From the NCBI RefSeq assembly GCF_003334815.1, contig NZ_QOWO01000018.1: DNA of 64,000 bases; one strand, written 5' to 3'. The position numbers and the translations under genes were made by a program. This stretch comes from Escherichia coli (lineage in GTDB: Bacteria > Pseudomonadota > Gammaproteobacteria > Enterobacterales > Enterobacteriaceae). Positions 7,200 to 51,623 of the stretch are shown here, in pieces. The notes beneath the pieces are model-generated. The model saw nothing but the letters and a program-made list of their open reading frames with translations. It had not been told where the DNA came from and searched no databases. Every line of letters starts with the position of its first letter. Positions within the stretch are counted from its first letter, which is position 1.

Positions 7200-7263
7200 C
7201 TCTGGTAGACTTCCTGTAATTGAATCGAACTGTAAAACGACAAGTCTGACATAAATGACCGCT

Positions 7264-7995: not shown

Positions 7996-8070
7996 ATACC
8001 TGTGAAAGGCGCTAAAAATAGCGACTTGGGCGATTTTTGCAGCAAACGATTCAAAAGATGAGAAAAACCG

Positions 8071-8099
8071 TTGACGAAGGTCGAGGCAATCCGTAATAT
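8071..8099 (+). promoter_or_regulatory. Sigma-70-type promoter for aspV
   Basis: TTGACG, 17-bp spacer, TAATAT, about 30 bp upstream of the tRNA 5' end. Confidence 0.5.
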
Positions 8100-8127
8100 T
8101 CGCCTCGTTCCCAACGGAACACAACGC

Positions 8128-8204
8128 GGAGCGGTAGTTCAGTCGGTTAGAATACCTGCCTGTCACGCAGGGGGTCGCGGGTTCGAGTCCCGTCCGTTCC
8201 GCCA
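8128..8204 (+). tRNA. aspV: tRNA-Asp (GUC anticodon)
   Basis: Identical 77-nt tRNA-Asp sequence ending in CCA; tRNA genes are common island integration sites. Confidence 0.95.
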
Positions 8205-8234
8205 CTATTCACTCATGAAAATGAGTTCAGAGAG

Positions 8235-8265
8235 CCGCAAGATTTTTAATTTTGCGGTTTTTTTG
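8235..8265 (+). terminator. Rho-independent terminator after aspV
   Basis: ccgcaa-gatttttaattt-ttgcgg followed by a T7 run. Confidence 0.6.
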
Positions 8266-8531
8266 TATTTGAATTCCACCATTTCTCTGTTCAATGATTT
8301 TACTCTGGCGTAGGTGCGTGATTCTCGCTTGTTGTCTCATTCATTAAAATTCAATAATGATATCGAACCATTCAGCTTAAATATATTTCTAGAGAATAAA
8401 TTTATATTGATTAAATGAATGTATATTTCAAATTGATTTTGTTTGTTATTATTTAAGTGAGGTATATAATTAGAGTCCGTTATCAATGCTAAATATTCTA
8501 ATCATTATGACAGGCGAGGGAGTGTCCAATT

Positions 8532-16322: not shown

Positions 16323-16796
16323 ATGGGCAGGATAAGCTCGGGAGGAATGATGTTTAAGGCAATAACGACAGTCGCCGCTCTGGTCATCGCCACCAGTGCA
16401 ATGGCGCAGGATGATTTAACCATTAGCAGCCTTGCAAAGGGCGAAACCACCAAAGCTGCATTTAATCAGATGGTACAAGGGCATAAGCTGCCTGCCTGGG
16501 TGATGAAAGGCGGTACTTATACTCCCGCACAAACCGTAACGTTGGGAGATGAGACGTATCAGGTGATGAGCGCGTGCAAACCGCATGACTGTGGCTCGCA
16601 ACGTATCGCTGTGATGTGGTCCGAGAAATCTAATCAGATGACGGGGCTGTTCTCGACTATTGATGAGAAAACGTCGCAAGAGAAACTCACCTGGCTGAAT
16701 GTGAACGATGCGCTTTCGATTGATGGTAAAACGGTGTTGTTCGCGGCGTTGACCGGCAGCCTGGAAAACCATCCGGATGGCTTTAATTTTAAATAA
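16323..16796 (+). CDS. ivy: Inhibitor of vertebrate lysozyme (periplasmic)
   Basis: 157-aa ORF with signal peptide and conserved CKPHDC loop motif. Confidence 0.85.
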   Translation: MGRISSGGMMFKAITTVAALVIATSAMAQDDLTISSLAKGETTKAAFNQMVQGHKLPAWVMKGGTYTPAQTVTLGDETYQVMSACKPHDCGSQRIAVMWSEKSNQMTGLFSTIDEKTSQEKLTWLNVNDALSIDGKTVLFAALTGSLENHPDGFNFK

Positions 16797-20306: not shown

Positions 20307-21074
20307 ATGTGCGAATTGCTCGGGATGAGCGCCAACGTCCCTACCGATATCTGCTTTAGTTTCACCGGGCTTGTACAGCGTGGTGGTGGAACCGGGCCAC
20401 ATAAAGATGGCTGGGGCATTACCTTTTACGAAGGTAAAGGCTGTCGCACATTTAAAGATCCACAACCCAGCTTTAATTCCCCCATCGCCAAACTTGTCCA
20501 GGACTACCCGATAAAATCCTGTTCGGTGGTGGCTCATATTCGCCAGGCTAATCGGGGCGAGGTGGCGCTGGAAAATACTCACCCATTTACCCGCGAGTTA
20601 TGGGGGCGTAACTGGACTTATGCCCATAACGGACAACTGACGGGCTACAAATCACTGGAAACCGGCAACTTCCGCCCGGTAGGCGAAACCGACAGCGAAA
20701 AAGCCTTCTGCTGGCTCCTGCATAAATTAACGCAGCGTTACCCGCGCACACCGGGCAACATGGCGGCGGTATTTAAATATATCGCCTCACTGGCGGATGA
20801 ACTGCGGCAGAAGGGCGTTTTCAACATGCTGCTTTCGGACGGGCGCTATGTAATGGCGTATTGCTCGACTAATTTACACTGGATCACCCGCCGCGCGCCG
20901 TTTGGCGTGGCAACGTTGCTGGATCAGGATGTGGAAATCGACTTCAGCTCGCAGACCACACCGAATGATGTGGTCACGGTGATTGCAACACAGCCGCTGA
21001 CGGGCAATGAAACCTGGCAAAAGATTATGCCAGGCGAATGGCGCTTATTTTGCCTCGGGGAGCGTGTAGTTTGA
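20307..21074 (+). CDS. yafJ: Class II glutamine amidotransferase-like protein
   Basis: [10 protein letters not shown]... N-terminal Cys nucleophile after Met; ATG at 20307. Confidence 0.8.
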
Positions 21075-21785
21075 TGCCAGTTGTGGCTGCACAACTTCGT
21101 GGCTTAACGGCTTGCTGACCACGTAACGACCATTGACCACAGAAACGGTTGGTGGCTTACGGGTTTGCTCAAAGTAGTCGTAACCCGGCTTCAGTTGCTC
21201 CCAGAAGTCCTTAAAGTTGGAATATTTATGGCGCTTCATATTGGCGTCGGTCATGCGGAACGGGTAAATACTCACTTGCACGCTCGGCTGACCAAACACC
21301 AGCGCACCAGTAACGAACTGGAATATCTCATCAATACCCTGATTGGTCATTGCGTAGCAGCCGATGGAAACACAATCGCCGTGGATCATCAGGTATTTCC
21401 CTTCATAACCATGCGCACGGTCATAGGCATTGGGGAAACCAATATTAATCGCTTTGTAGTAACGGCTGTCTGGTTTTAACTGATTACGCTGGACGCTATA
21501 AAACCCTTCCGGGCTTTTGAAATCGCCCTGACGCTGTTTTGGCCCTAAGCCGCCGGAATATTTACAGATTTTATAGCTGTCGAGCAGTTGATATTGCTCG
21601 CCCATTTTGACGTAGAGATCGAGCGTACGTTCTTCCTTGAAGATCTGGATGTAGACAGGGGATCCCATCAACTGCTGCTTATACTCTTTGCTCACAGGCG
21701 TGGTAGAGCTACTGCTGCCCAGCAAACCGGCAAATGAAACGCACGGGATCAACAACATCGCAAGAATTAATGCGATTTTACGCAT
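21045..21785 (-). CDS. yafK: L,D-transpeptidase-family periplasmic protein (YafK/DpaA)
   Basis: 246-aa ORF with signal peptide and YkuD-type catalytic motif ([12 protein letters not shown]). Confidence 0.85.
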
Positions 21786-22514: not shown

Positions 22515-22691
22515 CTTGAATTGTAGCTCAAATGAGCAACAGCGACAATCCATGAGTAATTTAATAAACGGATGTTTTTACATAATTAACTGAAATATAT
22601 ATGTTAATTTTATAATAATGGTTTATTAAGTTTGTTCAGAAACGATCCGGGATACACTGCAACATTAAAGCATGACCAGCCATTATTGAGT

Positions 22692-23441
22692 ATGTCCTTG
22701 CCGTCGATTCCATCCTTTGTATTGTCGGGATTACTGTTGATTTGTTTGCCGTTTTCTTCATTTGCCAGCGCCACCACATCACATATCTCTTTCAGCTACG
22801 CCGCCCGCCAGCGGATGCAAAACCGTGCGCGTTTATTAAAACAGTACCAAACTCATCTGAAAAAGCAGGCCAGCTATATTGTGGAAGGCAATGCCGAAAG
22901 CAAAAGGGCGCTACGCCAGCACAACCGGGAGCAGATAAAACAGCATCCAGAATGGTTTCCTGCTCCGCTCAAGGCGAGTGACAGACGCTGGCAGGCGCTG
23001 GCGGAAAACAACCACTTTTTAAGCAGCGACCATCTGCATAACATTACCGAAGTGGCGATTCACCGCCTGGAGCAGCAGCTTGGCAAGCCTTACGTCTGGG
23101 GCGGTACGCGGCCTGATAAAGGCTTTGACTGTAGCGGGTTGGTTTTTTATGCCTACAACAAGATCCTTGAGGCTAAGCTCCCGCGCACGGCCAATGAGAT
23201 GTACCACTATCGCCGGGCAACGATTGTGGCGAACAACGACCTGCGCCGGGGAGATTTGCTGTTTTTCCATATCCACAGCCGCGAGATAGCCGATCATATG
23301 GGCGTGTATTTGGGCGATGGGCAATTTATCGAGTCGCCACGTACCGGCGAAACCATTCGGATAAGCCGATTAGCCGAACCTTTCTGGCAGGACCATTTTT
23401 TGGGCGCGCGCAGGATTTTGACGGAAGAGACGATTTTGTAG
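22692..23441 (+). CDS. yafL: NlpC/P60-family peptidoglycan endopeptidase lipoprotein
   Basis: 249-aa product; NlpC/P60 catalytic Cys (GFDCSGLVFYAY) and His; ATG at 22692. Confidence 0.8.
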   Translation: MSLPSIPSFVLSGLLLICLPFSSFASATTSHISFSYAARQRMQNRARLLKQYQTHLKKQASYIVEGNAESKRALRQHNREQIKQHPEWFPAPLKASDRRWQALAENNHFLSSDHLHNITEVAIHRLEQQLGKPYVWGGTRPDKGFDCSGLVFYAYNKILEAKLPRTANEMYHYRRATIVANNDLRRGDLLFFHIHSREIADHMGVYLGDGQFIESPRTGETIRISRLAEPFWQDHFLGARRILTEETIL

Positions 23442-23616: not shown

Positions 23617-24114
23617 ATGTCTGAATATCGTCGTTATTACATCAAGGGGGGAACATGGTTTTTCACGGTGAATTTACGAAATCGTCGAAGCCAACTTTTG
23701 ACCACCCAGTACCAGATGCTCCGTCACGCCATTATTAAAGTTAAGCGAGACAGGCCTTTTGAAATCAACGCCTGGGTCGTTTTGCCAGAGCATATGCACT
23801 GTATCTGGACATTACCTGAAGGCGATGATGATTTTTCCTCGCGCTGGCGGGAAATTAAAAAGCAATTTACCCATGCTTGTGGATTGAAAAATATCTGGCA
23901 ACCACGTTTTTGGGAGCACGCCATCCGCAATACCAAAGATTATAGGCATCATGTTGATTATATTTATATAAATCCAGTAAAGCATGGTTGGGTAAAGCAA
24001 GTGAGTGATTGGCCATTCTCAACGTTCCATCGCGATGTCGCGCGAGGGTTATATCCCATCGATTGGGCGGGGGACGTAACGGATTTTAGTGCCGGGGAGC
24101 GTATCATTTCATAA
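23617..24114 (+). CDS. rayT: REP-associated tyrosine transposase (RayT / TnpA-REP)
   Basis: 165-aa ORF with HuH-type motif (EHMHCIW) and conserved Tyr region; flanked on both sides by REP clusters. Confidence 0.85.
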   Translation: MSEYRRYYIKGGTWFFTVNLRNRRSQLLTTQYQMLRHAIIKVKRDRPFEINAWVVLPEHMHCIWTLPEGDDDFSSRWREIKKQFTHACGLKNIWQPRFWEHAIRNTKDYRHHVDYIYINPVKHGWVKQVSDWPFSTFHRDVARGLYPIDWAGDVTDFSAGERIIS

Positions 24115-34938: not shown

Positions 34939-35649
34939 ATGACCATTGAAACACTGCGCGGGCGCTATCGCCTGCACCGCTTCCCGCCGCGCCAGCGTGC
35001 GGTGACCGGAGAACCGCTCACCGCCAGCATTAGCGCCGCCGATTACCAGCGCCAGTTGATGGACGGTTTTCAGGAAGGGCTGCAAAAAGGTTTTGCTCAG
35101 GGAATGACCGAAGGTCAGGAGCAGGGCTTTAGCGAAGGTCATCAGCAAGGTTTTGCCGAGGGGCGACGCCAGGGCTACACCGAAGGCAGTCTCGCCGGGC
35201 AGCAGGAAGGGCGCAAACAGTTTGTTGAGGCGGCGCAGCCGCTGGAAGCCATCACCGGTAAAGTGAACGACTTTCTCGCCCATATCGAACGTAAACAGCG
35301 GGAAGATTTGCTGCAACTGGTGGAAAAGGTGACGCGGCAGGTGATCCGCTGCGAACTGGCGCTGCAACCGACGCAGTTGCTGGCGCTGGTGGAAGAGGCG
35401 CTGGCGGCCTTCCCGGCGATGCCGGAAACCCTGCAAGTGATGCTGAGTACGGAAGAGTTTAACCGCCTGCGCGACGCGGTGCCGGAAAAGGTCAGCGAAT
35501 GGGGGCTGACGCCTTCGCCGGATCTGCCACCGGGCGAATGCCGGGTGATCACCGACAAATCCGAACTGGATATCGGCTGCGAGCATCGCCTTGAACAATG
35601 CATGACCGCGCTGAAAGAAACACTCACGCCGGAGTCGCAGGGTGAGTGA
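34939..35649 (+). CDS. lfiH: Lateral flagellar export protein, FliH homologue
   Basis: 236-aa ORF with repeated GxxxG/EG-rich N-terminal region, between FliG and FliI homologues. Confidence 0.75.
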   Translation: MTIETLRGRYRLHRFPPRQRAVTGEPLTASISAADYQRQLMDGFQEGLQKGFAQGMTEGQEQGFSEGHQQGFAEGRRQGYTEGSLAGQQEGRKQFVEAAQPLEAITGKVNDFLAHIERKQREDLLQLVEKVTRQVIRCELALQPTQLLALVEEALAAFPAMPETLQVMLSTEEFNRLRDAVPEKVSEWGLTPSPDLPPGECRVITDKSELDIGCEHRLEQCMTALKETLTPESQGE

Positions 35650-36979
35650 TTTTTCTGCGTTCGATAACGCCCTGCGCTCGCTGGAGTCGATCCCGCTGGC
35701 CCGCGTCGCCGGGCGGCTGGTGCGCCTTAACGGCATCCTGCTGGAGAGTGTCGGCTGCCCGCTAATGACCGGGCAGCTGTGCCGCATCGAAAGTGCCAAT
35801 CACACGCTGATCGACGCGCAGGCCGTGGGCTTTAATCGCGACATCACCTATTTAATGCCGTTTAAACAGCCGGTCGGCCTGATGGCAGGCGCACGCGTCT
35901 TCCCGGAAGAAAAAGCCCACGACATCCTGATAGGCGAAAGCTGGTTAGGCCGCGTGGTGAATGGCCTCGGCGAACCGCTGGATGGCAAAGGCCGCCTGAA
36001 CGGCAACGACCTTCTGCCGCCGTTGCCGCCCTCGGTTAATCCCTTAACTCGTCGTTCGGTAGACGAACCGCTGGACGTGGGCGTGAAAGCGATCAACGGC
36101 CTGCTGACCATCGGCAAAGGCCAGCGCGTCGGACTAATGGCAGGCAGCGGCGTCGGGAAAAGCGTGCTGCTGGGGATGATCACCCGCCAGACCAAAGCCG
36201 ATATCGTGGTGGTTGGGCTGATTGGGGAACGCGGGCGCGAAGTGAAAGAGTTTATCGACCACTCGCTGGGCGCGGACGGGCTGGCAAAGTCTATCGTCGT
36301 CGTCGCGCCTGCCGATGAATCGCCGCTGATGCGTCTGAAAGCCACCGAACTGTGCCACTCCATCGCCGCCTGGTTTCGCGACCGCGGGCATCACGTCTTA
36401 CTGCTGGTGGATTCCCTGACCCGCTACGCGATGGCGCAGCGGGAAATCGCCCTCTCGCTCGGCGAACCGCCCGCCACCAAAGGTTATCCGCCATCGGCAT
36501 TCGGCATGATCCCCAAACTGGTCGAAAGCGCAGGCAACAGCGAAAGCGCGGGATCGATGACCGCCATCTACACCGTGCTGGCGGAAGGTGACGACCAGCA
36601 AGATCCGATTGTCGACTGCGCGCGCGCGGTGCTGGACGGGCATATCGTATTAACCCGCAAACTGGCGGAAGCGGGGCACTATCCGGCCATTGATATCGGC
36701 CAGTCGATCAGCCGCTGCATGAACCAGGTCACCAGCCTGGAACATCAGCAATCCGCCCGCGCGTTAAAGCAAAACTATGCCGCCTATATGGAGATCAAAC
36801 CTCTGATCCCGCTCGGCGGCTATGTGGCAGGTGCCGACGCCAGCGTCGACAAAGCGGTGAAAATGTTTCCGGCCATTGAGCGATTTTTGCGCCAGGAGAT
36901 GCGCGAACCCGCCTCCCTCGAACTGGTGCAAAGCCGCCTGCAAATCCTCTTTCCTTGTGCCAAAAAGGCAGAACAGTAA
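35642..36979 (+). CDS. lfiI: Lateral flagellum-specific export ATPase, FliI homologue
   Basis: 445-aa ORF with Walker A (GSGVGKSVLLGM) and Walker B (LLLVDSLTRYA). Confidence 0.9.
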   Translation: MSDFSAFDNALRSLESIPLARVAGRLVRLNGILLESVGCPLMTGQLCRIESANHTLIDAQAVGFNRDITYLMPFKQPVGLMAGARVFPEEKAHDILIGESWLGRVVNGLGEPLDGKGRLNGNDLLPPLPPSVNPLTRRSVDEPLDVGVKAINGLLTIGKGQRVGLMAGSGVGKSVLLGMITRQTKADIVVVGLIGERGREVKEFIDHSLGADGLAKSIVVVAPADESPLMRLKATELCHSIAAWFRDRGHHVLLLVDSLTRYAMAQREIALSLGEPPATKGYPPSAFGMIPKLVESAGNSESAGSMTAIYTVLAEGDDQQDPIVDCARAVLDGHIVLTRKLAEAGHYPAIDIGQSISRCMNQVTSLEHQQSARALKQNYAAYMEIKPLIPLGGYVAGADASVDKAVKMFPAIERFLRQEMREPASLELVQSRLQILFPCAKKAEQ

Positions 36980-36981
36980 CT

Positions 36982-37416
36982 ATGCGACAAATCATCGACA
37001 CCCTGGCGCAGTTGCAGCGCCTGCGGGATAAATCGGTCAAAGACAAAACCGTCGAGCTGGCAAAGCAAAAACAGATTTGCGCGGGTTATGACAACAATAT
37101 CAAGGCGTTAGGCTACCTTGTCGAGAAAACATCTGCGGGTGCGGCGGTGTCGGTGGAATCGCTGAAAAACGTCAGCGGCTACAAAGGCACCCTGCGCAAG
37201 GTAATCGCCTGGCAGGAGCAGGAAAAAACGCTGGCCAATATCAAAGCCACGCGAATGCAGAAAAACCTCACGGCGGCGGCGTGCGAAGAGAAAGTAGTCG
37301 CCCTGACGCTGGACGACAAACGCCGCGAGCAACAAGAAAGCGCCACGGCGAAAGCGCAAAAAGCGGTGGACGACATCGCCGTGCAGTGCTGGCTGCGGCA
37401 CAAATTAGCGGAGTAG
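36982..37416 (+). CDS. lfiJ: Lateral flagellar export chaperone, FliJ homologue
   Basis: Coiled-coil about 145-aa protein after FliI; ATG at 36982. Confidence 0.7.
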   Translation: MRQIIDTLAQLQRLRDKSVKDKTVELAKQKQICAGYDNNIKALGYLVEKTSAGAAVSVESLKNVSGYKGTLRKVIAWQEQEKTLANIKATRMQKNLTAAACEEKVVALTLDDKRREQQESATAKAQKAVDDIAVQCWLRHKLAE

Positions 37417-37418
37417 CC

Positions 37419-37814
37419 ATGAAAACGGTCATCACCTTCGGCACCTTCGATGTGTTTCATGTCGGTCATCTGCGCCTTTTACAACGCGCCCGCGCATTGG
37501 GCGAGCGGCTGCTGGTCGGCGTATCGTCCGACGCCCTGAACATCGCCAAAAAGGGCAGGGCACCGGTTTACCATCAGGATGACCGCATGGCGATCATCGC
37601 CGGGCTGGCGTGCGTGGATGGCGTATTTCTGGAAGAGTCGCTGGAGCAAAAAGCGGAGTATTTGCGCGGGTACAGTGCGGATATTTTAGTGATGGGGGAT
37701 GACTGGGCAGGGAAGTTTGACAGCTTTGCGTATATTTGTGAGGTGGTCTATTTCCCCCGCACGCCGTCGGTGTCGACGACGGGGATTATTGAGGTGATTA
37801 GAGGGCTTTTATAA
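37419..37814 (+). CDS. Glycerol-3-phosphate cytidylyltransferase (TagD-like, CDP-glycerol synthesis)
   Basis: 131-aa product MKTVITFGTFDVFHVGHLRLL...ILVMGDDWAGKFDSF...CEVVYFPRTPSVSTTGII with HxGH and RTxGISTT motifs; ATG at 37419. Confidence 0.8.
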   Translation: MKTVITFGTFDVFHVGHLRLLQRARALGERLLVGVSSDALNIAKKGRAPVYHQDDRMAIIAGLACVDGVFLEESLEQKAEYLRGYSADILVMGDDWAGKFDSFAYICEVVYFPRTPSVSTTGIIEVIRGLL

Positions 37815-37839
37815 AGTACTAAAACAGAGATGTATTTTC

Positions 37840-37930
<91 letters not shown>

Positions 37931-37931
37931 T

Positions 37932-40376
37932 TTACCCCAGCGCCTCCACAATCACAATCGCCGCCCGTTCTCCCGCCTTGCCATCCATAAACGCATCGCA
38001 ATAGTGATGGCGAATCTCCGTAAGCCGCGCCTGCACCGACCCCCAGTCAAACGCCTCTGACAACAAATAACGCAGTTCTGCAACATCATGAGCAACCGGC
38101 AATATTTCGCGGATTCGCTGGTCGGCGCTCTCTGCCGTGGAATAACTTTTCTCACCGTCGAGCAAATCATTCATGCCCGGAAAGTCGAGCAGGATCACCC
38201 GCTTATCAACGTGGATAGCATCGAAAATAAACCCGCTGTTATCGGTCAGCACGTAATCGGCTTTTGCCAGCAGCGCCAGCGTGTGGCGGGCGGAGTCGGT
38301 GCGCTGTTTTAAATGCCTGCGCACCAGGGCCAGCGATGCTGCTTCTTCCGGGCGTGAGCAGGTGCCATGGTGCAGTTTGCAAATCAGGTTCACATCACCG
38401 CTCAAGCGGCCCAATTTTTCAGCCCAGTGGGGCAGGGAGCTTAATGCGCCAAACGTTGGGGCATAGAGCACCGTAGGTTTACGGTAATCTGATTGGATGT
38501 TTTCCGGCAACGCGCGATCGAACGTGCCGTTATGCCAGGCGTCGAAGCGCGGGTTGCCGACCACTTTTGCGCTGCCGAAATGCGCCAGCGCCTGCTGACT
38601 GTAGTGGCTATAACACAAAATGCTTTGGTAAAAACGATTCCAGTCGGCGTGGTTCCACGTCTCTTTGGCTAAGCCGTACATAGCGCGGATGTTCACCGCC
38701 GCCAGGCCATTGAGCGCAGGCGTGTGGTAGGGGCTGACCAGGCATTTCACCCGCTGACCATGTGTCTGCATTTCTGACAGACGCATACCTTTAAGCTGCG
38801 GATCGTCGATGTTTTTCAGTGTTTCCAGCATCTCATCAAGAAACGGTTTAAACACGCGGTCATTGATCACTAGTGTGCAGCTCTGCCCCTGCGCCTGTAG
38901 AGCGGTGATGATTGGGCGGTACAGCGTGTAGTGGAATGAGGTTTCCATAAAAAAGCCGATGGTATCGGCGATGGGTAATGTAGATGGCTTGGTGGCTACG
39001 GGTAACTTATTGAAATAGTGAGCAATATTATCAGTCGTTTTTTTCTCGATATCACTAAAACCCGGTCGCTGGTAGCAAAGGCTCGGGTAACAGGCCAGCC
39101 ATTTGTCGGCGCGTAGCAGCGGCTGCCAGCAGGCTTCCAGCGAGTGCTCATCGTTGCTCATCTGCTGCGCCAGTTGCGGGTAGTAGCGGCTGTTCACCAG
39201 ATACGCGCACACTTTGCGGCAGTCCCGCGCGTGCACCAGCCCCGGCAAACTTTTTAGCATCGTTCCCTGCGAAATTTCGCCACCGAGGATCATCACCTGC
39301 CAGGGAATTTTCGCCAGGCTCGCCAGCAGCGTGTTCAGTACCTGAATATGTTTCTCCTGCTTGAGAATAACCGCGTCATCTTCCAGCAGCAGGTAGTTTT
39401 GCCAGCCGTGCTGTTGCGCCAGGCGCAGCGCCTGTAAGTGCGACTGACGGCGGCCCCGTTGACCGTTTTCATCTTCACTGGCGGCAAGGCGGGTGATCTT
39501 CTCAGGTGGAATATGCAGCAATGCCAGTTCTTCACGGATCTGTTGTAAGCGATCCGGGCGTTTATCCAGATTCAGCAGAACGATCTGATCGATCGCCTGA
39601 TGGTTGATCGCCTGGTGATGAGTGGCGTTATGCAGACTCAGATAAGCATTGCGCAGCAGCGGATCGCGGACGATATCCGTAAGCGCCGCGTTTACTGGCG
39701 TGCTGGCCCCGAGAATAAAATCTTTATCAAAGGTGTTGTGACTATGCGAGATACACAGAATCGTGCGCTCGCCGGGCAGTTGCAGCGGGTTTACGCTGAA
39801 ATTGTCGGTGAAACGTTTCTCTTCGCCTAAATTGCAATCATCGTCGTAACGGTGCTTTTTCAGGTAGTTACGGTGATAGCAAAAGGTGCCGTTGAGGATG
39901 TTATGCGGGCCAAAGCTGCGGCTTTGAAAGATGCGGTTGATGTGGCTGTACCAGATGGGGATCTGATCGGAGCCGGAGATGAGCGCCCGGTGTTTTTGCA
40001 TCATGGCGATGGTGTAAGAGATTTTATCTGCCGGGTAGTAGTCGTCATCGTCCATGCAGAGGATGTATTCGCCGCGCGCCAGTTCGTTGAGCATGTTGCG
40101 TTTTTTGCCCAGCGGCAGTTTTTCCGGGTGATGGATGTAGCGGATGTTAAAGGCTTCCGGCGTGCCATTGGTCAGGCGGTCGATGATGTGTTGATGGCTT
40201 TGTGGGGAATCGTCGAGGATGATGAGTTCGCGGCGGTCTGCCGGGTAATCCTGATAGCGGTACATATAGAGCAGGTACGGCAGGAATGCGCCGCGGTTCC
40301 AGGTTGGCGTGACGACGCTGACAAACGGTTTTTCGCGGTGGGTGTTGAGTGTTTTGATGATGGTTGGTGTTGGCAT
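37932..40376 (-). CDS. Multidomain glycosyltransferase (N-terminal GT-A/GT2-like, central GT25-like, C-terminal TagB/TagF-like CDP-glycerol glycerophosphotransferase)
   Basis: ORF 37932..40448; ATG at 40376 chosen (upstream residues lie in the inverted-repeat element); motifs VSVVTPTWNR, ILDDSP, DDDDYY, central VLLNLDKRPDRL, C-terminal VLYAPTF / YVLTDNSGFIFDAIHVDKRVILL. Confidence 0.65.
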   Translation of the reverse strand: MPTPTIIKTLNTHREKPFVSVVTPTWNRGAFLPYLLYMYRYQDYPADRRELIILDDSPQSHQHIIDRLTNGTPEAFNIRYIHHPEKLPLGKKRNMLNELARGEYILCMDDDDYYPADKISYTIAMMQKHRALISGSDQIPIWYSHINRIFQSRSFGPHNILNGTFCYHRNYLKKHRYDDDCNLGEEKRFTDNFSVNPLQLPGERTILCISHSHNTFDKDFILGASTPVNAALTDIVRDPLLRNAYLSLHNATHHQAINHQAIDQIVLLNLDKRPDRLQQIREELALLHIPPEKITRLAASEDENGQRGRRQSHLQALRLAQQHGWQNYLLLEDDAVILKQEKHIQVLNTLLASLAKIPWQVMILGGEISQGTMLKSLPGLVHARDCRKVCAYLVNSRYYPQLAQQMSNDEHSLEACWQPLLRADKWLACYPSLCYQRPGFSDIEKKTTDNIAHYFNKLPVATKPSTLPIADTIGFFMETSFHYTLYRPIITALQAQGQSCTLVINDRVFKPFLDEMLETLKNIDDPQLKGMRLSEMQTHGQRVKCLVSPYHTPALNGLAAVNIRAMYGLAKETWNHADWNRFYQSILCYSHYSQQALAHFGSAKVVGNPRFDAWHNGTFDRALPENIQSDYRKPTVLYAPTFGALSSLPHWAEKLGRLSGDVNLICKLHHGTCSRPEEAASLALVRRHLKQRTDSARHTLALLAKADYVLTDNSGFIFDAIHVDKRVILLDFPGMNDLLDGEKSYSTAESADQRIREILPVAHDVAELRYLLSEAFDWGSVQARLTEIRHHYCDAFMDGKAGERAAIVIVEALG

Positions 40377-40401
40377 GGTGTTTGGGTGAGTTAATGGGTG
40401 A

Positions 40402-40548
40402 ATGTGATGAATGTGCGCGCTGATGCCCTCACCCCAACCCTCTCCCACAGGGAGAGGGAGAAAATCAGCGCCGATTTTAACACTGTGCTCGATCGGTCCC
40501 CTCGCCCCTTTGGGGAGAGGGTTAGGGTGAGGGGCAAAGCGCGCACAG
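40402..40548. mobile_element. MITE-like element with about 35-bp terminal inverted repeats (family unassigned)
   Basis: Left arm tgtgcgcgctgatgccctcaccccaaccctctccc (40402..40436) and right arm, reverse-complemented, tgtgcgcgctttgcccctcaccctaaccctctccc (40514..40548); internal palindrome ccctctccc/gggagaggg. Confidence 0.55.
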
Positions 40549-40554
40549 AGCGAC

Positions 40555-41484
40555 TCACGTTAGCAGCGAAAACGCTGAAAGCAGCGGGTCGGCGGCACAT
40601 AACGACTGAATTTGCTGGCGAACCAACAGCGCATTTTCACTGGCTCGCCAGCGTTCAAACATGGCAAAGAGGGCGAAAATATCCTCCTGCCGCAGCGAAG
40701 AACCATCCAGCGTCCATAAACTGATTAACGTGCGGAGGAGATAAAAATCGCACACCAGCGGGAAATAATCCGCCCCGTCAGTCTGCCCAATCACATCGTG
40801 GTAAACGCGGTAAATCAGCCAGTTACGCATCATCCAGGGCGCGGTGGCAAAATGCTGTTGCCAGGTGGTTTGCCACTGCGTCTGAAGCTGCTGTTGTAAC
40901 AGGGCTTCGCTGTTAGCGTCATGCAGCGTCAGCAAAGGCATCTGCAACGGCAGCGAAGTTTTGCGCGGGCTTTCCGGCAAAATCGACCAGTCAAACGTAA
41001 AACTCCCGAGTAACGTGGCCAGGTGACGCGCCAGCTGTGGCACGGGCGGCAGCTGGGCGAACTGTGCCTGTAGGATGCCTTTTTTCGCATGATCGGCCAG
41101 CGCCTGCGGCAGCGTCGTCAAACGGGCAAGAATATCTCCGTCTCTGCCCGGCATTTTACTGGCGCGGGAGAGCAGGATACCGACGGCATACAATGACAGT
41201 TCTGGTGTTAAATCACGGAGCGTGAGGGTACTCAAAATCACCTGGTTTACTATCGCATCGCGCGCGGAAAGCTCTGCGGCATTTTCTTCCACAGGACGGT
41301 AGGTGAGCTGTAAATCAAAGGCCCTGACATCGTTGAGCATCGCTTCGCAGCTTTCTGGCTCTGTCAGCATCAGGCTCAGGCGAATCTCGTTTTTCCACAC
41401 CTTGCGGACGTATAAAGGCGAACCGGGGTATTGCGTCATAAAATTGCGCACGTATTCCGGTTCGTAACATTCAATAAAACTCAT
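40555..41484 (-). CDS. Hypothetical protein (Flag-2 accessory, unknown function)
   Basis: 309-aa ORF from the ATG at 41484; no recognisable motifs; sigma-54-type promoter upstream. Confidence 0.6.
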   Translation of the reverse strand: MSFIECYEPEYVRNFMTQYPGSPLYVRKVWKNEIRLSLMLTEPESCEAMLNDVRAFDLQLTYRPVEENAAELSARDAIVNQVILSTLTLRDLTPELSLYAVGILLSRASKMPGRDGDILARLTTLPQALADHAKKGILQAQFAQLPPVPQLARHLATLLGSFTFDWSILPESPRKTSLPLQMPLLTLHDANSEALLQQQLQTQWQTTWQQHFATAPWMMRNWLIYRVYHDVIGQTDGADYFPLVCDFYLLRTLISLWTLDGSSLRQEDIFALFAMFERWRASENALLVRQQIQSLCAADPLLSAFSLLT

Positions 41485-41518
41485 AGGTGGCTTCCAGTCT
41501 TTAATGCTGTGCAGGATG

Positions 41519-41534
41519 TGCAATAAGCGTGCCG
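41519..41534 (-). promoter_or_regulatory. Sigma-54-type promoter (-24 GG / -12 GC) upstream of the hypothetical/glycosyltransferase genes
   Basis: Minus strand reads CGGCACG-CTTA-TTGCA (plus strand tgcaataagcgtgccg), matching TGGCACG-N4-TTGCA at 14 of 15 fixed positions with correct GG/GC spacing; about 35 bp upstream of the ATG at 41484. Confidence 0.55.
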
Positions 41535-43230: not shown

Positions 43231-43566
43231 ATGGGGATCAGTTTTCAACAGGCATTGGGAGTACATCCGCAGGCAGTGAAGTTACGTCTTGAGAGGACCG
43301 AGCTACTGACTGCGAATCTGGCGAACGTCGATACGCCAAATTTCAAGGCTAAAGATATTGATTTTGCCAGGGAGATGCAACGGGCAAATAACGCGGCGGT
43401 GGATGTCCAGTACCGCGTGCCGATGCAGCCGTCGGAAGATGGCAACACCGTGGAGCTGAACAGCGAACAGGCGCGGTTTTCACAAAATAGTATGGATTAT
43501 CAAAGCAGTCTGACCTTTCTGAATCTGCAAATCAGCGGCATCAGAGAGGCCATTGAAGGGAAATAA
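43231..43566 (+). CDS. lfgB: Lateral flagellar proximal rod protein, FlgB homologue
   Basis: ORF 43201..43566; ATG at 43231 chosen because the ORF-track start overlaps the promoter/TSS; FlgB-like N-terminus. Confidence 0.75.
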   Translation: MGISFQQALGVHPQAVKLRLERTELLTANLANVDTPNFKAKDIDFAREMQRANNAAVDVQYRVPMQPSEDGNTVELNSEQARFSQNSMDYQSSLTFLNLQISGIREAIEGK

Positions 43567-43568
43567 GC

Positions 43569-44000
43569 ATGTCATTTACTGATATCTATCAGATTTCCGG
43601 CTCGGCGATGACGGCACAGACCATTCGCCTGAATACCGTCGCCAGTAACCTGGCGAACGCCGAGGCGCCTGCCGGTAGCGAGGCGCAGGCGTATAAAGCG
43701 CGCAGCCCGGTGTTTGCGGCGGTGTATCACCACAGCTTGCTGGCGGGTACACATCGTCATGCCATTGACGCTGCCAGCGTGCAGGTGCAGGACGTGCTGC
43801 AAACCGGCGGGGCGGTGAAACGCTATGAACCGCATTCACCTCTGGCGGATGCTAACGGGGATGTCTGGTATCCCGACGTCAACGTGGTGGAACAGATGGC
43901 GGACATGATGTCGGCTTCGCGCGATTTCGAAACCAATGTCGATGTGCTCAACAACGTGAAAAGTATGCAGCAAAGTTTGCTGAAACTGGGAGAAGCCTGA
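43569..44000 (+). CDS. lfgC: Lateral flagellar rod protein, FlgC homologue
   Basis: 143-aa ORF with conserved rod-protein N- and C-terminal segments. Confidence 0.8.
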   Translation: MSFTDIYQISGSAMTAQTIRLNTVASNLANAEAPAGSEAQAYKARSPVFAAVYHHSLLAGTHRHAIDAASVQVQDVLQTGGAVKRYEPHSPLADANGDVWYPDVNVVEQMADMMSASRDFETNVDVLNNVKSMQQSLLKLGEA

Positions 44001-44713
44001 TGAATACCCTGGCGCTGAATGCGCAATCGCCGCAGCCGACCGCCACGGCGGAAAGCAATAATGTGGCGGCCAGCGACACGACAAGCAGCAGCGATAGCTC
44101 GCCCGTCGATACCTTCCTGACGCTGTTTGTCGCCGAGATCCAAAACCAGGACCCGACCGACCCAACCGACGCCACCGAATATATCGACCAGCTTTCGTCG
44201 ATGGCGCAGGTGGCGATGATGGAAGAGATGAGCGTGCAGGCCAACACCAACGCGGTGCTGATGAGCAACATTCAGGTGATGGCGCTCGGCAACCTGGTGG
44301 GCGACGACATTATGGTGCAGACCACCGCCTTGCAGGTCAGCGACCAGACCATTAACGGTCGCGCCACGCTGGACGACGCCTGTACCACCGCCGATCTCCA
44401 CTTTACCGATGCCGCAGGCGATGACTACACCGTCTCGCTGATCCCGCAAGGTAGTTCGTCCGTCGGGCCAGGCCAGGTGGATTTCTCGGTGGATCCCGCC
44501 GATTACGGCATCCCGCCGGGCGATTACGACGTTTCGGTGGTGACCAACACCGGCGAAGAAGAGGTGCCGATTGAAGTCTCCGGCGAAGTAGAAGATGTGC
44601 GCATCCCGCTCGACGGCAGCTCTCCGGTGCTCAACGTTGCAGGCGTGGGCGAAGTGCCGTTCACCATGATTAGCCAGTTTGGCGTACCCGATGCCGACAG
44701 TGATGTGGCGTGA
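44000..44713 (+). CDS. lfgD: Lateral flagellar hook capping protein, FlgD homologue
   Basis: 237-aa ORF with FlgD N-terminal motif (DTFLTLFVAEIQNQDPTDP). Confidence 0.8.
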   Translation: MNTLALNAQSPQPTATAESNNVAASDTTSSSDSSPVDTFLTLFVAEIQNQDPTDPTDATEYIDQLSSMAQVAMMEEMSVQANTNAVLMSNIQVMALGNLVGDDIMVQTTALQVSDQTINGRATLDDACTTADLHFTDAAGDDYTVSLIPQGSSSVGPGQVDFSVDPADYGIPPGDYDVSVVTNTGEEEVPIEVSGEVEDVRIPLDGSSPVLNVAGVGEVPFTMISQFGVPDADSDVA

Positions 44714-44717
44714 TGTC

Positions 44718-44816
44718 CGGTGCCAAATTGCCTGATGCGCTTCGCTTATCAGGCCTACATGAAACTGCATTGTTTTGTAGGCCGGATAAGGTGTTCACGC
44801 CGCATCCGGCAAAACA
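44718..44816. repeat. REP pair (BIME) between lfgD and lfgE
   Basis: Two inverted REP palindromes. Confidence 0.7.
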
Positions 44817-44856
44817 ACGGGCACGCTGTCAAAATTTGAATTAACAGGAAGACACA

Positions 44857-46059
44857 ATGAGTTATGAAATTGCCGCGACGGGGCTGAATGCCGTTAACGA
44901 ACAACTGGACGGGATCAGTAACAACATCGCCAACGCCGGAACGGTGGGCTATAAGTCGATGACCACTCAGTTTTCAGCTATGTATGCCGGAAGTCAGGCG
45001 ATGGGCGTCAGCGTGGCGGGTACGGCGCAGAGCATTTCGCGCGGCGGTTCGCTGGTCTCCACCGGTAACGCGCTGGATCTGGCGATTAACGACGACGGCT
45101 TTTTTGTTACCTGCGACAGCGCGGGCAACATTTCCTACACCCGCGCCGGATCGTTTGAAACCGACAAAAACGGCTATATCGTCAACGCCTCGGGCGCTTA
45201 TTTGCAGGGCTATCCGGTCGATGACACTGGCACTCTGCAAACCGGTACGGTCACCGATATCCAGATCAAAACCGGCAATATCCCGGCGCAGGCCAGCAGC
45301 AGCCTGACTTTTACCGCCAACTTCGATGCCAGCGACGATGCTATCGACCGTACAACCGTACCGTTTGATGCGACCAACAGCAGCTCGTACACCGACAGCT
45401 ACACCACCACGGTATATGACTCATTAGGCAACGAACATTCGGTATGCCAGTACTTCACCAAAACCAGCGATAACACCTGGGAAGTGCAGTACACCTTCGA
45501 CGGTCAGCAGCAGACTGGTGTTCCGGCGACGACGTTAACCTTCGACCCGAACACCGGGAAGCTGACCTCGCCAACCACGCCGCAGACCATTGAATTTCAA
45601 ACCGACGCCGCCGCACCCATCGACTTAACCGTCGATTACTCGACCTGTACGCAATACGGCTCGGACTTCTCGGTCACCACCAACGCCGCCAACGGCTACG
45701 CTTCCGCGACTCAGAACGGTGTGCAGGTCGATGACGATGGCAAAGTTTACGCTACCTACAGCAACGGCGAGCGCATGTTGCAGGGCCAGGTGGTGCTGGC
45801 GACTTTCCCGAATGAAAACGGACTCGAAGCGGTAAGCGGCACCGCGTGGGTACAAACCGGGGAATCCGGTACCCCGCTGATTGGCGTTCCCGGCTCCGGT
45901 ACCTGCGGTACGCTGTCGTCCGGCGTGCTCGAAAGCTCTAACGTCGATATCACCAGCGAACTGGTCAACCTGATGACCGCCCAGCGTAACTATCAGGCCA
46001 ACACCAAAGTTATCGCTACCAGCACGCAGCTCGATGACGCGCTGTTCCAGGCAATGTAA
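44857..46059 (+). CDS. lfgE: Lateral flagellar hook protein, FlgE homologue
   Basis: 400-aa ORF with conserved axial-protein N-terminus and C-terminus (MTAQRNYQANTKVI). Confidence 0.85.
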   Translation: MSYEIAATGLNAVNEQLDGISNNIANAGTVGYKSMTTQFSAMYAGSQAMGVSVAGTAQSISRGGSLVSTGNALDLAINDDGFFVTCDSAGNISYTRAGSFETDKNGYIVNASGAYLQGYPVDDTGTLQTGTVTDIQIKTGNIPAQASSSLTFTANFDASDDAIDRTTVPFDATNSSSYTDSYTTTVYDSLGNEHSVCQYFTKTSDNTWEVQYTFDGQQQTGVPATTLTFDPNTGKLTSPTTPQTIEFQTDAAAPIDLTVDYSTCTQYGSDFSVTTNAANGYASATQNGVQVDDDGKVYATYSNGERMLQGQVVLATFPNENGLEAVSGTAWVQTGESGTPLIGVPGSGTCGTLSSGVLESSNVDITSELVNLMTAQRNYQANTKVIATSTQLDDALFQAM

Positions 46060-46796
46060 TGGACCGCCTGATTTATACCGCCCTGAGCGGTGCTTCTCAG
46101 ACCCTGTACGAGCAGCAGATTAGCGCCAACAACCTGGCGAACGTCAACACCAACGGTTTTCGCGCCGATATGGCAATGGCAACCAACGACAAGGTGAAAG
46201 GCGGCGGCTTCGACACGCGCTATATGGCGCAGGAAGGGGCCAGCGGCGTGAACGACAGCACGGGTGTAGCGGAGAAAACCGAACGCCCGCTGGACGTGGC
46301 GATTCAGGGCGCGGGTTACATTGCGGTGCAGGATAAAAACGGCAACGAAGTGTATACCCGCAACGGCAACATTCAGCAGGACGACCAGGGGCAACTGGCC
46401 ATCGACGGCAATCTGGTGCTGGGGGATAACGGCCCGATCATTCTGCCGCCGAATGCCATTGCTTCGTTTGGCAGCGACGGCACGCTGTCGGTGACGCCCG
46501 ATGACGGCGACGTGACCGCGACGATGGATATCGACCGCCTGAAGCTGGTGGATATCCCGGTCGCTAACCTGGCGAAAAATCCTGAAGGGATGTTGATAAC
46601 GGCGGACGGCGTTCCGGCCCAGCGCGATGAAAATATCAAAGTCAGCGGCGGTTTTCTCGAGGGCAGCAACGTCTCGGCGGTGAGCGAAATGATGTCGTCC
46701 ATCGCCATGAACCGCCAGTTCGAAGCGCAGATCAAGATGATGAAAACCGCCGAAGATATCAGCGACGCGGGCAACCGCTTATTGCGCGGCTCGTAA
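46059..46796 (+). CDS. lfgF: Lateral flagellar rod protein, FlgF homologue
   Basis: 245-aa axial protein with conserved termini (NRQFEAQIKMMKTAED). Confidence 0.8.
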   Translation: MDRLIYTALSGASQTLYEQQISANNLANVNTNGFRADMAMATNDKVKGGGFDTRYMAQEGASGVNDSTGVAEKTERPLDVAIQGAGYIAVQDKNGNEVYTRNGNIQQDDQGQLAIDGNLVLGDNGPIILPPNAIASFGSDGTLSVTPDDGDVTATMDIDRLKLVDIPVANLAKNPEGMLITADGVPAQRDENIKVSGGFLEGSNVSAVSEMMSSIAMNRQFEAQIKMMKTAEDISDAGNRLLRGS

Positions 46797-46802
46797 CCGC
46801 AC

Positions 46803-46848
46803 ATCGTAGGCCGGATAAGGCGTTCACGCCGCATCCGGCAACCGCGGC
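46803..46848. repeat. Single REP element between lfgF and lfgG
   Basis: gtaggccggataaggcgttcacgccgcatccggca. Confidence 0.7.
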
Positions 46849-46874
46849 CCAAAAATAACACGGAATTTACCACC

Positions 46875-47660
46875 ATGAACGCAGCATTATGGATCAGCAA
46901 AACCGGCCTCTCGGCGCAGGATGCTGAAATGAGCGCGATTGCCAACAACATCGCCAACGTTAATACCACCGGCTTCAAGCGCGACCGGGTGATGTTTCAG
47001 GATCTGTTCTACCAGACCCAGGAAGCGCCGGGCGCGATGCTCGACCAGAACAACATCATGCCGACCGGGCTGCAATTCGGTAGCGGCGTGCGCATTGTCG
47101 GTACCCAGAAAACCTTCACCGAAGGCAACGTCGAAACCACCGACAACGCGATGAATGTCGCCATTATGGGGCAGGGATTTTTGCAGGTGCAAAAGGCTAA
47201 CGGCGATATCGCCTATACCCGCGATGGCAACTTGCAGGTGAACGCCGACGGCGTGCTGACCAACTCGCAGGGCTTGCCGTTGCAGCCGGAAATCGACGTT
47301 CCGGCAGGGGCCACCAACGTCGCGTTTGGTGAGGATGGCACAGTGACGGCGATCTTACCCGGCGACAGCGACGCGACCGAGTTAGGGCAACTGACGCTGG
47401 TTAACTTCGCCAACCCGGCGGGGCTTTCCGCCGAGGGCGACAACCTGTATCTGGAAACCGCCGCCAGCGGTCAGCCGACAGAAGGTGTGCCGGGCGAAGA
47501 TGGGCTTGGCACTTTGCAGGACAACGCACTGGAAGGCTCGAACGTGGATATCGTCAACGAAATGGTGGCGATGATTACGGTGCAACGCGCGTACGAGATG
47601 AACGCCAAAATGGTGTCGGCGGCGGACGATATGTTGCAGTACATCAGCCAGACGCTGTAA
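46875..47660 (+). CDS. lfgG: Lateral flagellar distal rod protein, FlgG homologue
   Basis: 261-aa ORF with typical FlgG termini (MNAALWISKTGLSAQ...; ITVQRAYEMNAKMVS). Confidence 0.85.
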   Translation: MNAALWISKTGLSAQDAEMSAIANNIANVNTTGFKRDRVMFQDLFYQTQEAPGAMLDQNNIMPTGLQFGSGVRIVGTQKTFTEGNVETTDNAMNVAIMGQGFLQVQKANGDIAYTRDGNLQVNADGVLTNSQGLPLQPEIDVPAGATNVAFGEDGTVTAILPGDSDATELGQLTLVNFANPAGLSAEGDNLYLETAASGQPTEGVPGEDGLGTLQDNALEGSNVDIVNEMVAMITVQRAYEMNAKMVSAADDMLQYISQTL

Positions 47661-48543: not shown

Positions 48544-49644
48544 ATGCAAAACTGGATAAAAACAGTGGTCGTAGCCGTAAGCCTGGCGCTACCCGGCGTG
48601 GTGCTGGCGCAATCGCTGGAGTCACTGGTTAACGTACAGGGCGTGCGTGAAAACCAACTGGTCGGCTACAGCCTGGTGGTCGGCCTCGACGGTACCGGTG
48701 ATAAAAACCAGGTCAAATTCACCAACCAGACCATCACCAATATGCTGCGCCAGTTTGGCGTGCAGTTGCCGAATAAAATCGACCCGAAGGTGAAAAACGT
48801 CGCCGCAGTGGCGGTGAGCGCCACGTTGCCGCCGATGTACTCGCGCGGGCAGACCATTGATGTCACCGTCTCGTCGATTGGCGATGCGAAAAGTATTCGC
48901 GGCGGCACCTTGCTGTTGACGCAGTTGCACGGCGCAGATGGTGAAGTGTATGCCCTGGCGCAGGGCAGCGTGGTGGTCGGCGGGATGAACGCCACCGGGG
49001 CTAGTGGCTCCAGCGTAACGGTTAATACTCCAACCGCCGGGTTAATTCCTAACGGCGCAACGGTGGAGCGCGAGATCCCCAGCGATTTTCAGATGGGCGA
49101 CACTATCACCCTCAACCTGAAACGTCCGTCGTTTAAAGACGCTAACAACATTGCGGCGGCGATTAACGCCTCGTTTGGTGGCATTGCCACCGCACAGAGT
49201 TCCACCAACGTTACCGTGCGTGCGCCTACCAGCCCCGGTGCGCGGGTGGCGTTTATGTCGCAACTGGACGATGTGCAGGTGCAGGCAGAGAAAATCCGCG
49301 CTCGCGTGGTGTTTAACTCGCGTACCGGCACGGTGGTGATGGGCGATGGCGTTGCGCTGCACGCGGCGGCGGTGTCGCACGGCAGTTTGACCGTTTCGAT
49401 TAACGAAACCAGCAACGTCAGCCAGCCGAATTCCTTTGCGGGCGGGCGCACGGCGGTAACGCCGCAGAGCAATATCGCGGTGAATCATGCCCGTCCGGGC
49501 GTGGTGAGTTTGCCGGAGTCGAGCAGCCTGAAAACGCTGGTCAATGCGTTGAACAGTTTAGGTGCGACGCCGGATGACATTATGTCAATTTTGCAGGCGC
49601 TGCATGAAGCGGGCGCGCTGGATGCCGACCTGGAGGTGATCTGA
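48544..49644 (+). CDS. lfgI: Lateral flagellar P-ring protein, FlgI homologue
   Basis: Signal peptide [23 protein letters not shown]; FlgI-like; ATG at 48544. Confidence 0.85.
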
Positions 49645-49943
49645 TGAAAGTTAACGGCAGCGGCGGGATTGACGGCAGCGATGCGTTAATGGGGCCGAAG
49701 GTTCAGGCCAATGATATCAGGCAGGCCGCCGAACAGTTTGAGGCGATTTTTTTACGCAACATGCTGAAAGAGATGCGTAAAACCAACGAGTTGTTTGATT
49801 CGAAAGATAACCCATTTAACAGCGATTCGGTGCGCATGATGCAGGGATTTTATGACGATGAGTTGTGTAACACCCTGGCGCAGCAGCACGGGATTGGGAT
49901 TGCGGCGATGATTGTGAAGCAGTTGTCGCCGAAGCATAGGTGA
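49644..49943 (+). CDS. lfgJ: FlgJ homologue, rod-binding domain only (no muramidase domain)
   Basis: 99-aa ORF with FlgJ N-terminal motif (AAEQFEAIFLRNMLKEMR). Confidence 0.7.
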   Translation: MKVNGSGGIDGSDALMGPKVQANDIRQAAEQFEAIFLRNMLKEMRKTNELFDSKDNPFNSDSVRMMQGFYDDELCNTLAQQHGIGIAAMIVKQLSPKHR

Positions 49944-49951
49944 AGCTCCGA

Positions 49952-50175
<224 letters not shown>

Positions 50176-50246
50176 GTTTACGGAATTTAAGAATCCCCAT
50201 CTTCACGCCGCTTTTAACCGGCACGATTTACCGGTAAGGATCCAAC

Positions 50247-51623
50247 ATGGACATGATTAACATCGGCTACAGCGGCGCATCAACCGCGCAGGTGGAGCTG
50301 AACGTCACGGCGCAAAACACCGCTAACGCCATGATCACTGGCTACACTCGCCAGGTGGCGGAGATCAGCACCATCGGTGCCAGCGGCGGTTCGCCGAACA
50401 GCGCCGGTAACGGCGTACAGGTGGACAGCATTCGCCGCGTCTCCAACCAGTATCAGGTGAATCAGGTGTGGTATGCCGCCAGCGATTACGGCTATTACAG
50501 CACCCAGCAGGGGTATCTCAGCCAACTGGAAGCGGTACTAAGCGACGATAACAGCAGCCTGAGCGGCGGCTTCGATAACTTCTTCGCCGCCCTTAACGAA
50601 GCGACCACCAGCCCCGATGATTCCGCCCTGCGCGAGCAGGTGATCAGCGAAGCCGGGGCGCTGTCGTTGCGTATTGATAACACGCTCGATTACGTCGACT
50701 CGCAAAGCACGGAAATCATCAGCCAGCAGCAGGCGATGGTGTCGCAAATCAACACGCTCACCAGCGGTATCGCCAGCTATAACCAGCAAATTGCTCAGGC
50801 CGAAGCCAACGGTGATAACGCCTCTGCGCTGTACGACGCCCGCGATCAGATGGTGGAAGAACTGAGCGGGATGATGGAAGTGCAGGTCAATATCGACGAC
50901 CAGGGCAACTACAACGTCACCCTGAAAAACGGTCAGCCGCTGGTGAGCGGGCAACAAAGCTCGACCATCGCGCTGGAAACCAACGCCGACGGCACGCCGA
51001 CCATGTCGCTGACCTTCGCTGGCACCACCTCGACGATGACCACCGACACTGGAGGTTCATTAGGCGCACTGTTTGATTATCAAAACGATGTGCTGACGCC
51101 GTTGACCGACACCATCAACAGCATGGCCTCGCAGTTTGCCGATGCGGTCAACAACCAGCTGGCGCAGGGCTACGATCTCAACGGTAACCCCGGCGAGCCG
51201 CTGTTTATTTATGACGCCAGCAATGCCGATGGCCCACTGACCGTTAACCCGGATATCACCGCCGATGAGCTGGCGTTTTCCAGTTCGCCGGACGAAAGCG
51301 GTAACAGCGACAACCTGCAGGCGCTGATCAACATCTCCACCGAACCGCTGGAAATTGCCAATCTTGGCAGTGTGACGGTCGGGCAGGCGTGCTCGTCAAT
51401 CATCAGCAATATCGGCATTTACAGCCAGCAAAACCAGACGGAAGTCGATGCCGCGTCCAATGTCTATTCCGCAGCGCAAAACCAGCAGAGCAGCGTCAGC
51501 GGCGTCAGCATGGACGAAGAGGCGGTTAACCTGATCACCTATCAACAAATTTATGAAGCCAATCTGAAAGTCATTTCCGCCGGGGCCGAGATTTTCGATT
51601 CGGTGCTGGAAATGTGCAGCTAA
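50247..51623 (+). CDS. lfgK: Lateral flagellar hook-associated protein 1, FlgK homologue
   Basis: 458-aa ORF with axial-protein N-terminus and conserved C-terminus (ITYQQIYEANLKVISAG). Confidence 0.8.
   Translation: MDMINIGYSGASTAQVELNVTAQNTANAMITGYTRQVAEISTIGASGGSPNSAGNGVQVDSIRRVSNQYQVNQVWYAASDYGYYSTQQGYLSQLEAVLSDDNSSLSGGFDNFFAALNEATTSPDDSALREQVISEAGALSLRIDNTLDYVDSQSTEIISQQQAMVSQINTLTSGIASYNQQIAQAEANGDNASALYDARDQMVEELSGMMEVQVNIDDQGNYNVTLKNGQPLVSGQQSSTIALETNADGTPTMSLTFAGTTSTMTTDTGGSLGALFDYQNDVLTPLTDTINSMASQFADAVNNQLAQGYDLNGNPGEPLFIYDASNADGPLTVNPDITADELAFSSSPDESGNSDNLQALINISTEPLEIANLGSVTVGQACSSIISNIGIYSQQNQTEVDAASNVYSAAQNQQSSVSGVSMDEEAVNLITYQQIYEANLKVISAGAEIFDSVLEMCS

Follow-up and report, generated by a model that had tools for sequence, protein, structure and literature searches.

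Our analysis provides clear evidence that lfgJ of the Escherichia coli Flag-2 flagellar system encodes a natural single-domain protein, a FlgJ homologue that ends with its rod-binding domain and is not a truncation product. We propose, with a probability of about 0.55, that LfgJ serves as a rod cap and scaffold and that the enzyme opening the wall in trans is a Slt70-like housekeeping lytic transglycosylase whose gene lies outside the flagellar cluster. The gene was studied within a 64-kb stretch of E. coli DNA (hereafter the window), in which the Flag-2 locus extends from lfhA to lafU (24338-62271) on a gene map compared with the RefSeq annotation of a near-identical locus.

lfgJ is an ATG-to-TGA open reading frame that spans exactly positions 49644-49943 on the plus strand and encodes 99 amino acids. 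Its start codon shares one base with the stop codon of lfgI (TGATG) and is preceded by a GGAGG Shine-Dalgarno sequence; the same 1-nt overlap is found between flgI and flgJ in K-12. The upstream gene lfgI (48544-49644, plus strand) encodes a P-ring protein of 366 aa, which is annotated as FlgI and is 59% identical to the lateral FlgI of Plesiomonas and 49% identical to K-12 FlgI. The next gene after lfgJ is lfgK (50247-51623, plus strand), annotated as flgK, whose product is hook-associated protein 1 with the Pfam domains FlgK_D1 and Flg_bbr_C. According to their reading frames, annotation and Pfam matches the rod and hook genes lfgB, lfgC, lfgD, lfgE, lfgF and lfgG (43231-47660, plus strand) are all intact, and LfgJ presumably binds the rod proteins of this set.

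The domain search on LfgJ that the sequence-only reading had called for returned the Pfam rod-binding domain PF10135 as the sole domain (residues 42-93, the full 51-position model, E=5.9e-14) and no glucosaminidase domain PF01832. NCBIfam FlgJ models matched over the N-terminal ~90 positions only. The model for dual-domain FlgJ, TIGR02541, scored 67.8 bits (cutoff 193) and covered profile positions 21-91 of 294. In BLASTP, residues 22-98 of LfgJ aligned with residues 30-102 of K-12 FlgJ at 35% identity and no counterpart of K-12 FlgJ 103-313 was found in LfgJ; the end of LfgJ therefore corresponds to the end of the rod-binding domain. Comparison with FlgJ proteins that are fused to a lytic transglycosylase (SLT) domain likewise puts the LfgJ C-terminus (residue 99) 1-3 residues past this domain, and no C-terminal PF01464 is present on the LfgJ polypeptide. 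An AlphaFold2 model of only moderate confidence (50 homologues, pLDDT 70.6) predicts helices at residues 22-51, 61-80 and 86-94 and a disordered stretch at residues 1-17; a solved structure of the rod-binding domain was sought and none was found. The profile match and the gene position between flgI and flgK both assign LfgJ to the PF10135 family. Reading frame, Pfam, NCBIfam and BLASTP thus bear out the earlier claim that lfgJ encodes nothing more than a 99-aa rod-binding/scaffolding domain.

The RefSeq product name for lfgJ is "rod-binding protein", and LfgJ is already annotated in this way in more than 1000 genomes. NCBIfam additionally matches LfgJ with short models of 97-140 positions (NF009349-NF009352), which are titled 'peptidoglycan hydrolase' and cover the rod-binding domain only; they match both the window (49644-49940) and the LfgJ of locus L046. 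The LfgJ of Budvicia scores above the NF009349 cutoff (145.9 vs 141 bits), and enzyme-less proteins can therefore inherit the hydrolase name. We suggest that lfgJ be annotated as a rod-binding or rod-cap protein and not as "peptidoglycan hydrolase".

An in-frame muramidase domain further downstream, concealed by a sequencing frameshift, was the one finding that the sequence-only reading had named as contradicting a single-domain LfgJ. No such domain was found. The K-12 FlgJ and Plesiomonas FlgJL C-terminal domains were searched by tblastn against the 64 kb in all six frames and gave chance matches only (E>=0.016), the best of which (E=0.016) sits out of frame within lfgH. A glucosaminidase HMM built from 64 FlgJ C-terminal domains recovered its positive controls (K-12, E=3e-53; Plesiomonas, E=1e-61) and detected nothing in the whole 64-kb window. 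The 303-bp spacer between lfgJ and lfgK (49944-50246) could not encode an enzyme domain and consists of REP DNA, with two REP-containing units at a spacing of 118 bp (49956-50047 and 50074-50165) that are 90% identical to each other and form the direct repeat family D1. A frameshift or hidden enzyme domain at lfgJ is ruled out by these searches together with the nature of the spacer.

Across Escherichia genomes the length of this spacer varies (85, 189-210, 303, 421 and 794 bp), with one additional 118-bp unit in many E. coli. A scan of the spacer for an lfgK promoter yielded no match to a sigma-70, sigma-28 or terminator consensus. The window also contains the REP-associated transposase gene rayT (23617-24114).

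lfgJ is a real gene, because the identical protein occurs in 4837 blocks of the assembly collection, the lfgJ segment is carried by 1207 of 5426 complete E. coli genomes (at least 80% of segment 49300-50400 in one place), and the dN/dS values are 0.04-0.07 in comparison both with E. whittamii and Escherichia sp. and with Citrobacter where dS is unsaturated. These substitution ratios indicate strong purifying selection on lfgJ. The segment 49300-50400 is 99.8% identical to that of E. coli FORC_081. In a large protein collection the 104 close relatives of LfgJ are about 55-135 aa long and none of them carries PF01832; among the best non-enterobacterial representatives a glucosaminidase was undetectable in 89 of 138.

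The gene could also be a remnant in a cryptic locus, truncated or in decay, or its short form could stem from a sequencing frameshift. Most E. coli have lost Flag-2 by deletion, the locus of strain 042 carries a frameshift (PMC6993521), and some Flag-2 loci contain pseudogenes, such as fliI in FORC_081. In the ST131 strain EC958, Flag-2 is unexpressed and confers no motility under laboratory conditions (PMC4637896), and since expression in the laboratory was not seen in this strain, the function of Flag-2 in E. coli itself remains putative. Yet decay at lfgJ has next to no probability in our view: the 97-135-aa architecture is common to 45 species-level Enterobacterales genomes, dN/dS is low, traces of an enzyme domain are absent in all frames with REP DNA following the gene, and every Flag-2 gene of the window is intact.

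In the window the Flag-2 locus is flanked by rayT/yafL on one side and by dinB on the other, and the locus as well as all of its genes appear intact. The FORC_081 locus is listed in RefSeq with a complete lfi/lfg/laf gene set. Its lfiI carries an internal stop (the two loci are 99.8% similar), and the lfiI of the window (35642-36979), a FliI ATPase homologue of 445 aa, is intact. Between lfiJ and lfgN lies a variable region (37281-41523) with a TagD-like cytidylyltransferase, a glycosyltransferase of ~814-838 aa and a FliB-like flagellin lysine methylase, a gene content that suggests modification of the lateral flagellin. Elsewhere in the window, a 447-aa open reading frame at 13267-14610 (plus strand) has an Hcp/TssD type VI tube domain at its N-terminus (1-140), followed by an RHS core fragment (137-444), and is probably what a deletion has left of a T6SS/Rhs region; its counterpart in FORC_081 consists of partial RHS and IcmF genes and IS elements.

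The Flag-2 locus itself was searched by annotation, Pfam, NCBIfam and the SLT and glucosaminidase HMMs, and not a single peptidoglycan-lytic enzyme was found in it. Its content comprises flagellar components, regulators, flagellin-modification cargo (glycosyltransferase, cytidylyltransferase and FliB-like methylase) and two small genes without an assignment. Neither LafW (325 aa) nor the fliS-like 103-aa open reading frame after lafC had a Pfam or NCBIfam match. The unassigned genes were considered as sources of a lytic enzyme and rejected, the 309-aa open reading frame being FliB-like, LafU MotB-like, and the cargo a glycosyltransferase and a cytidylyltransferase. Any wall-lytic activity that serves Flag-2 must therefore be encoded outside the cluster.

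The single match in the window to an SLT HMM built from the FlgJ-SLT fusions (E=2.7e-7) is mltD (3794-5152, minus strand), a housekeeping membrane-bound lytic transglycosylase (NCBIfam NF008050, 883.7 bits) about 19 kb from Flag-2. A search for a flagellum-associated lytic transglycosylase or muramidase, as the sequence-only reading had recommended, accordingly ends within the window with no candidate from Flag-2 and with this one housekeeping SLT gene. Four peptidoglycan-related genes lie on one side of Flag-2, namely mltD, ivy (16323-16796, a lysozyme inhibitor), dpaA/yafK (21045-21785) and yafL (22632-23441, a C40 peptidase). The FORC_081 annotation has yafL and dpaA as chromosomal genes that lie beyond the locus, with mltD and ivy further out, and on the K-12 map the four genes also flank the Flag-2 deletion remnant. 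All four were judged to be housekeeping neighbours and were not retained as Flag-2 wall genes. Their proximity to Flag-2 is probably coincidental, since mltD is also present in K-12-type genomes that lack Flag-2.

Cap architectures were compared across lateral-type clusters by a scan that used one genome per species, was anchored on LfgI and yielded 80 loci. A rod-binding open reading frame directly follows lfgI in all 80, and the order lfgI-lfgJ-lfgK of the window is shared by every one of them. Within +/-6 kb no glucosaminidase was detected at any of the 80 loci. The 45 Enterobacterales Flag-2 loci have a bare LfgJ of 97-135 aa (Escherichia, Citrobacter, Enterobacter, Buttiauxella, Yersinia, Pantoea, Mangrovibacter, Budvicia, Pragia and others), and the four loci from Photobacterium (two), Grimontia and Aeromonas have a bare LfgJ of 132-177 aa. 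The short form, which had been taken as noteworthy, is hence the norm for the family. The observation of a single-domain LfgJ is correct but ordinary and does not point to a new kind of system.

The remaining 31 loci, from Pseudomonas, Stutzerimonas, Cellvibrio and related MAGs (L054-L069, L071-L072, L074-L083 and L086-L088; match region about 7100-8300 in each), encode a rod-binding domain followed by a C-terminal extension of 220-300 residues. This extension contains the motifs ES..G, GLMQLMP and AYNAGPG in the 31 longer FlgJ proteins, and in a Stutzerimonas example (L055) Pfam assigns Rod-binding plus SLT PF01464 (E=9e-25). In NCBIfam the SLT part comes closest to the models for BB0259, the flagellar lytic transglycosylase of Borrelia (E=4e-35), and for Slt70 (E=2e-25). 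An HMM of the SLT extension was also run +/-6 kb around lfgJ at the 49 bare-LfgJ loci, and a separate SLT gene was found at none of them.

The gene order lfgE-G-H-I-J-K-L is retained in 12 of 12 loci checked. A homologue of LafW, a protein absent from Flag-1 (PMC6993521), is present in four of four Enterobacterales loci and, among five sampled fusion loci, in four; none was found in Cellvibrio mixtus (L088) or in the Vibrionaceae/Aeromonas loci. As judged by sequence comparison, the 31 SLT-fusion clusters are orthologous and of the Flag-2 kind. E. coli LfgJ shares with these fusions the orthologous cluster context and a similar rod-binding domain, but it lacks the C-terminal SLT lytic-transglycosylase domain of about 240-300 residues. 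The fusions connect this rod-binding domain in function with a lytic transglycosylase of family 1, a link that concerns other genera and not recruitment in E. coli.

Relative to the dual-domain FlgJ of E. coli and Salmonella, LfgJ shares the N-terminal rod-binding domain, the position between flgI and flgK and the 1-nt overlap with flgI. Unlike the dual-domain FlgJ of beta/gamma-proteobacteria (TIGR02541), it has neither the linker nor the C-terminal GH73 glucosaminidase (FlgJ 103-313). The combination of single-domain FlgJ with separate lytic enzymes is already established (Nambu et al. 2006, cited in PMC8517470; PMC7277832). Rhodobacter sphaeroides has a single-domain FlgJ and a separate SltF, the gene for which lies within the flagellar flgG operon (PMC7277832), and Borrelia burgdorferi has FlgJ and the separate lytic transglycosylase BB0259 (PMC8517470). 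LfgJ resembles these FlgJ proteins in being a single-domain protein with rod-binding/scaffold parts only; in both organisms a different polypeptide cleaves the peptidoglycan. In contrast to Rhodobacter, neither the Flag-2 locus of E. coli nor the +/-6 kb around lfgJ at the 49 related loci contains an enzyme gene, and no linked dedicated lytic transglycosylase was found in the Flag-2 locus or the 64-kb window.

Plesiomonas shigelloides, also a member of the Enterobacterales, has a functional lateral Flag-2 system (PMC4481668) with the same gene order as E. coli Flag-2. Unlike the bare LfgJ of E. coli, its FlgJL (328 aa; P0202, L008 6001-6987) combines Rod-binding with Glucosaminidase. The enzyme domain has its closest match in the Plesiomonas polar FlgJ (58% identity) and the N-domain is nearest to the short lateral LfgJ proteins. 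This chimeric look suggests, on limited sampling, that the glucosaminidase of FlgJL is a secondary acquisition.

The sequence-only reading had offered two sources for the missing hydrolase, the primary flagellar FlgJ or a lytic transglycosylase, and the two turn out not to be equally likely (DISCRIMINATING): Budvicia and Pragia count against the former, and the 31 SLT fusions speak for the latter. If the dual-domain FlgJ from the Flag-1 (primary) system supplied its muramidase in trans to Flag-2 rods, the donor would rarely be missing. Of 5426 complete E. coli genomes, 5425 have a full-length primary flgJ, which is therefore available in practically every Flag-2-positive strain, and the case of Plesiomonas shows that a lateral system can use a glucosaminidase domain. 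We nevertheless consider such a supply quite improbable. Flag-2 is the sole flagellar locus in Budvicia (2/2 strains) and Pragia (4/4), in which flag-1, 3a, 3b, 4 and 5 are absent (De Maayer et al., PMC7526173 Table 1), and motility has been described for both genera (PMC7526173 Table 1; PMC6993521). Their LfgJ is the same bare form (106 aa in Budvicia and 103 aa in Pragia), with lfgK following 113-132 bp further on. Since both are Flag-2-only by the published tables, a Flag-2 system with a bare cap would need no primary FlgJ. Further, primary FlgJ has its enzyme domain attached to a rod-binding domain that shares just 35% identity with LfgJ, the purifying selection on LfgJ implies system-specific capping, and the two systems differ in regulation (LafK/sigma-54 in Flag-2).

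Another possibility is that no dedicated lysis takes place, so that the lateral rod uses gaps from normal peptidoglycan turnover and LfgJ is purely a cap. The 49 bare-LfgJ clusters, none of which has a lytic enzyme inside or nearby, are in line with this. Salmonella FlgJ without its C-terminal enzyme domain reportedly still gives weak motility (Hirano et al. 2001). For this reason the "must" in the earlier statement that the hydrolase must come from elsewhere is too strong; the location outside the cluster stands, given the enzyme-free Flag-2 locus. Against a purely passive passage, relatives have arrived at three independent solutions that put an enzyme with the cap (SLT fusion, glucosaminidase fusion and the separate SltF/BB0259), which suggests that local lysis matters. 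In Borrelia, moreover, the lytic-transglycosylase mutant cannot penetrate the wall (PMC8517470). On balance, rod assembly without dedicated lysis seems unlikely, if less so than a supply by primary FlgJ.

The SLT fusions and the precedents of Rhodobacter SltF and Borrelia BB0259 favour a lytic transglycosylase that acts in trans, and because the cluster itself encodes no transglycosylase, our best guess at its identity is a Slt70-like housekeeping enzyme. In the resulting scenario of a bare cap with a borrowed transglycosylase, the disordered N-terminus of LfgJ would carry the export signal and the protein would leave the cell interior through the Flag-2 type III export gate. LfgJ would then sit on the growing rod (LfgB/C/F/G) and promote rod polymerisation, as the N-terminal FlgJ domain does in Salmonella. 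The peptidoglycan at the rod tip would be opened in trans by a family-1 lytic transglycosylase that has a housekeeping role and its gene outside the cluster, Slt70-like enzymes being the best lead. A more specific version, which we put forward tentatively and rate clearly below this scenario, is that one orthologous family possesses three interchangeable caps (bare, SLT and glucosaminidase) and that the bare LfgJ specifically recruits a housekeeping Slt70-like transglycosylase to the rod tip.

The passage of a rod through the wall when no enzyme is tethered to it is a recognised problem, on which work exists in Rhodobacter, Borrelia and other bacteria. To this the Flag-2 family adds a natural comparison between clusters that are otherwise syntenic and differ in their cap, which is bare, fused to SLT or fused to a glucosaminidase. 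If the proposed recruitment is true, Flag-2 assembly would depend on a general cell-wall enzyme, and the SLT fusions would point to the partner.
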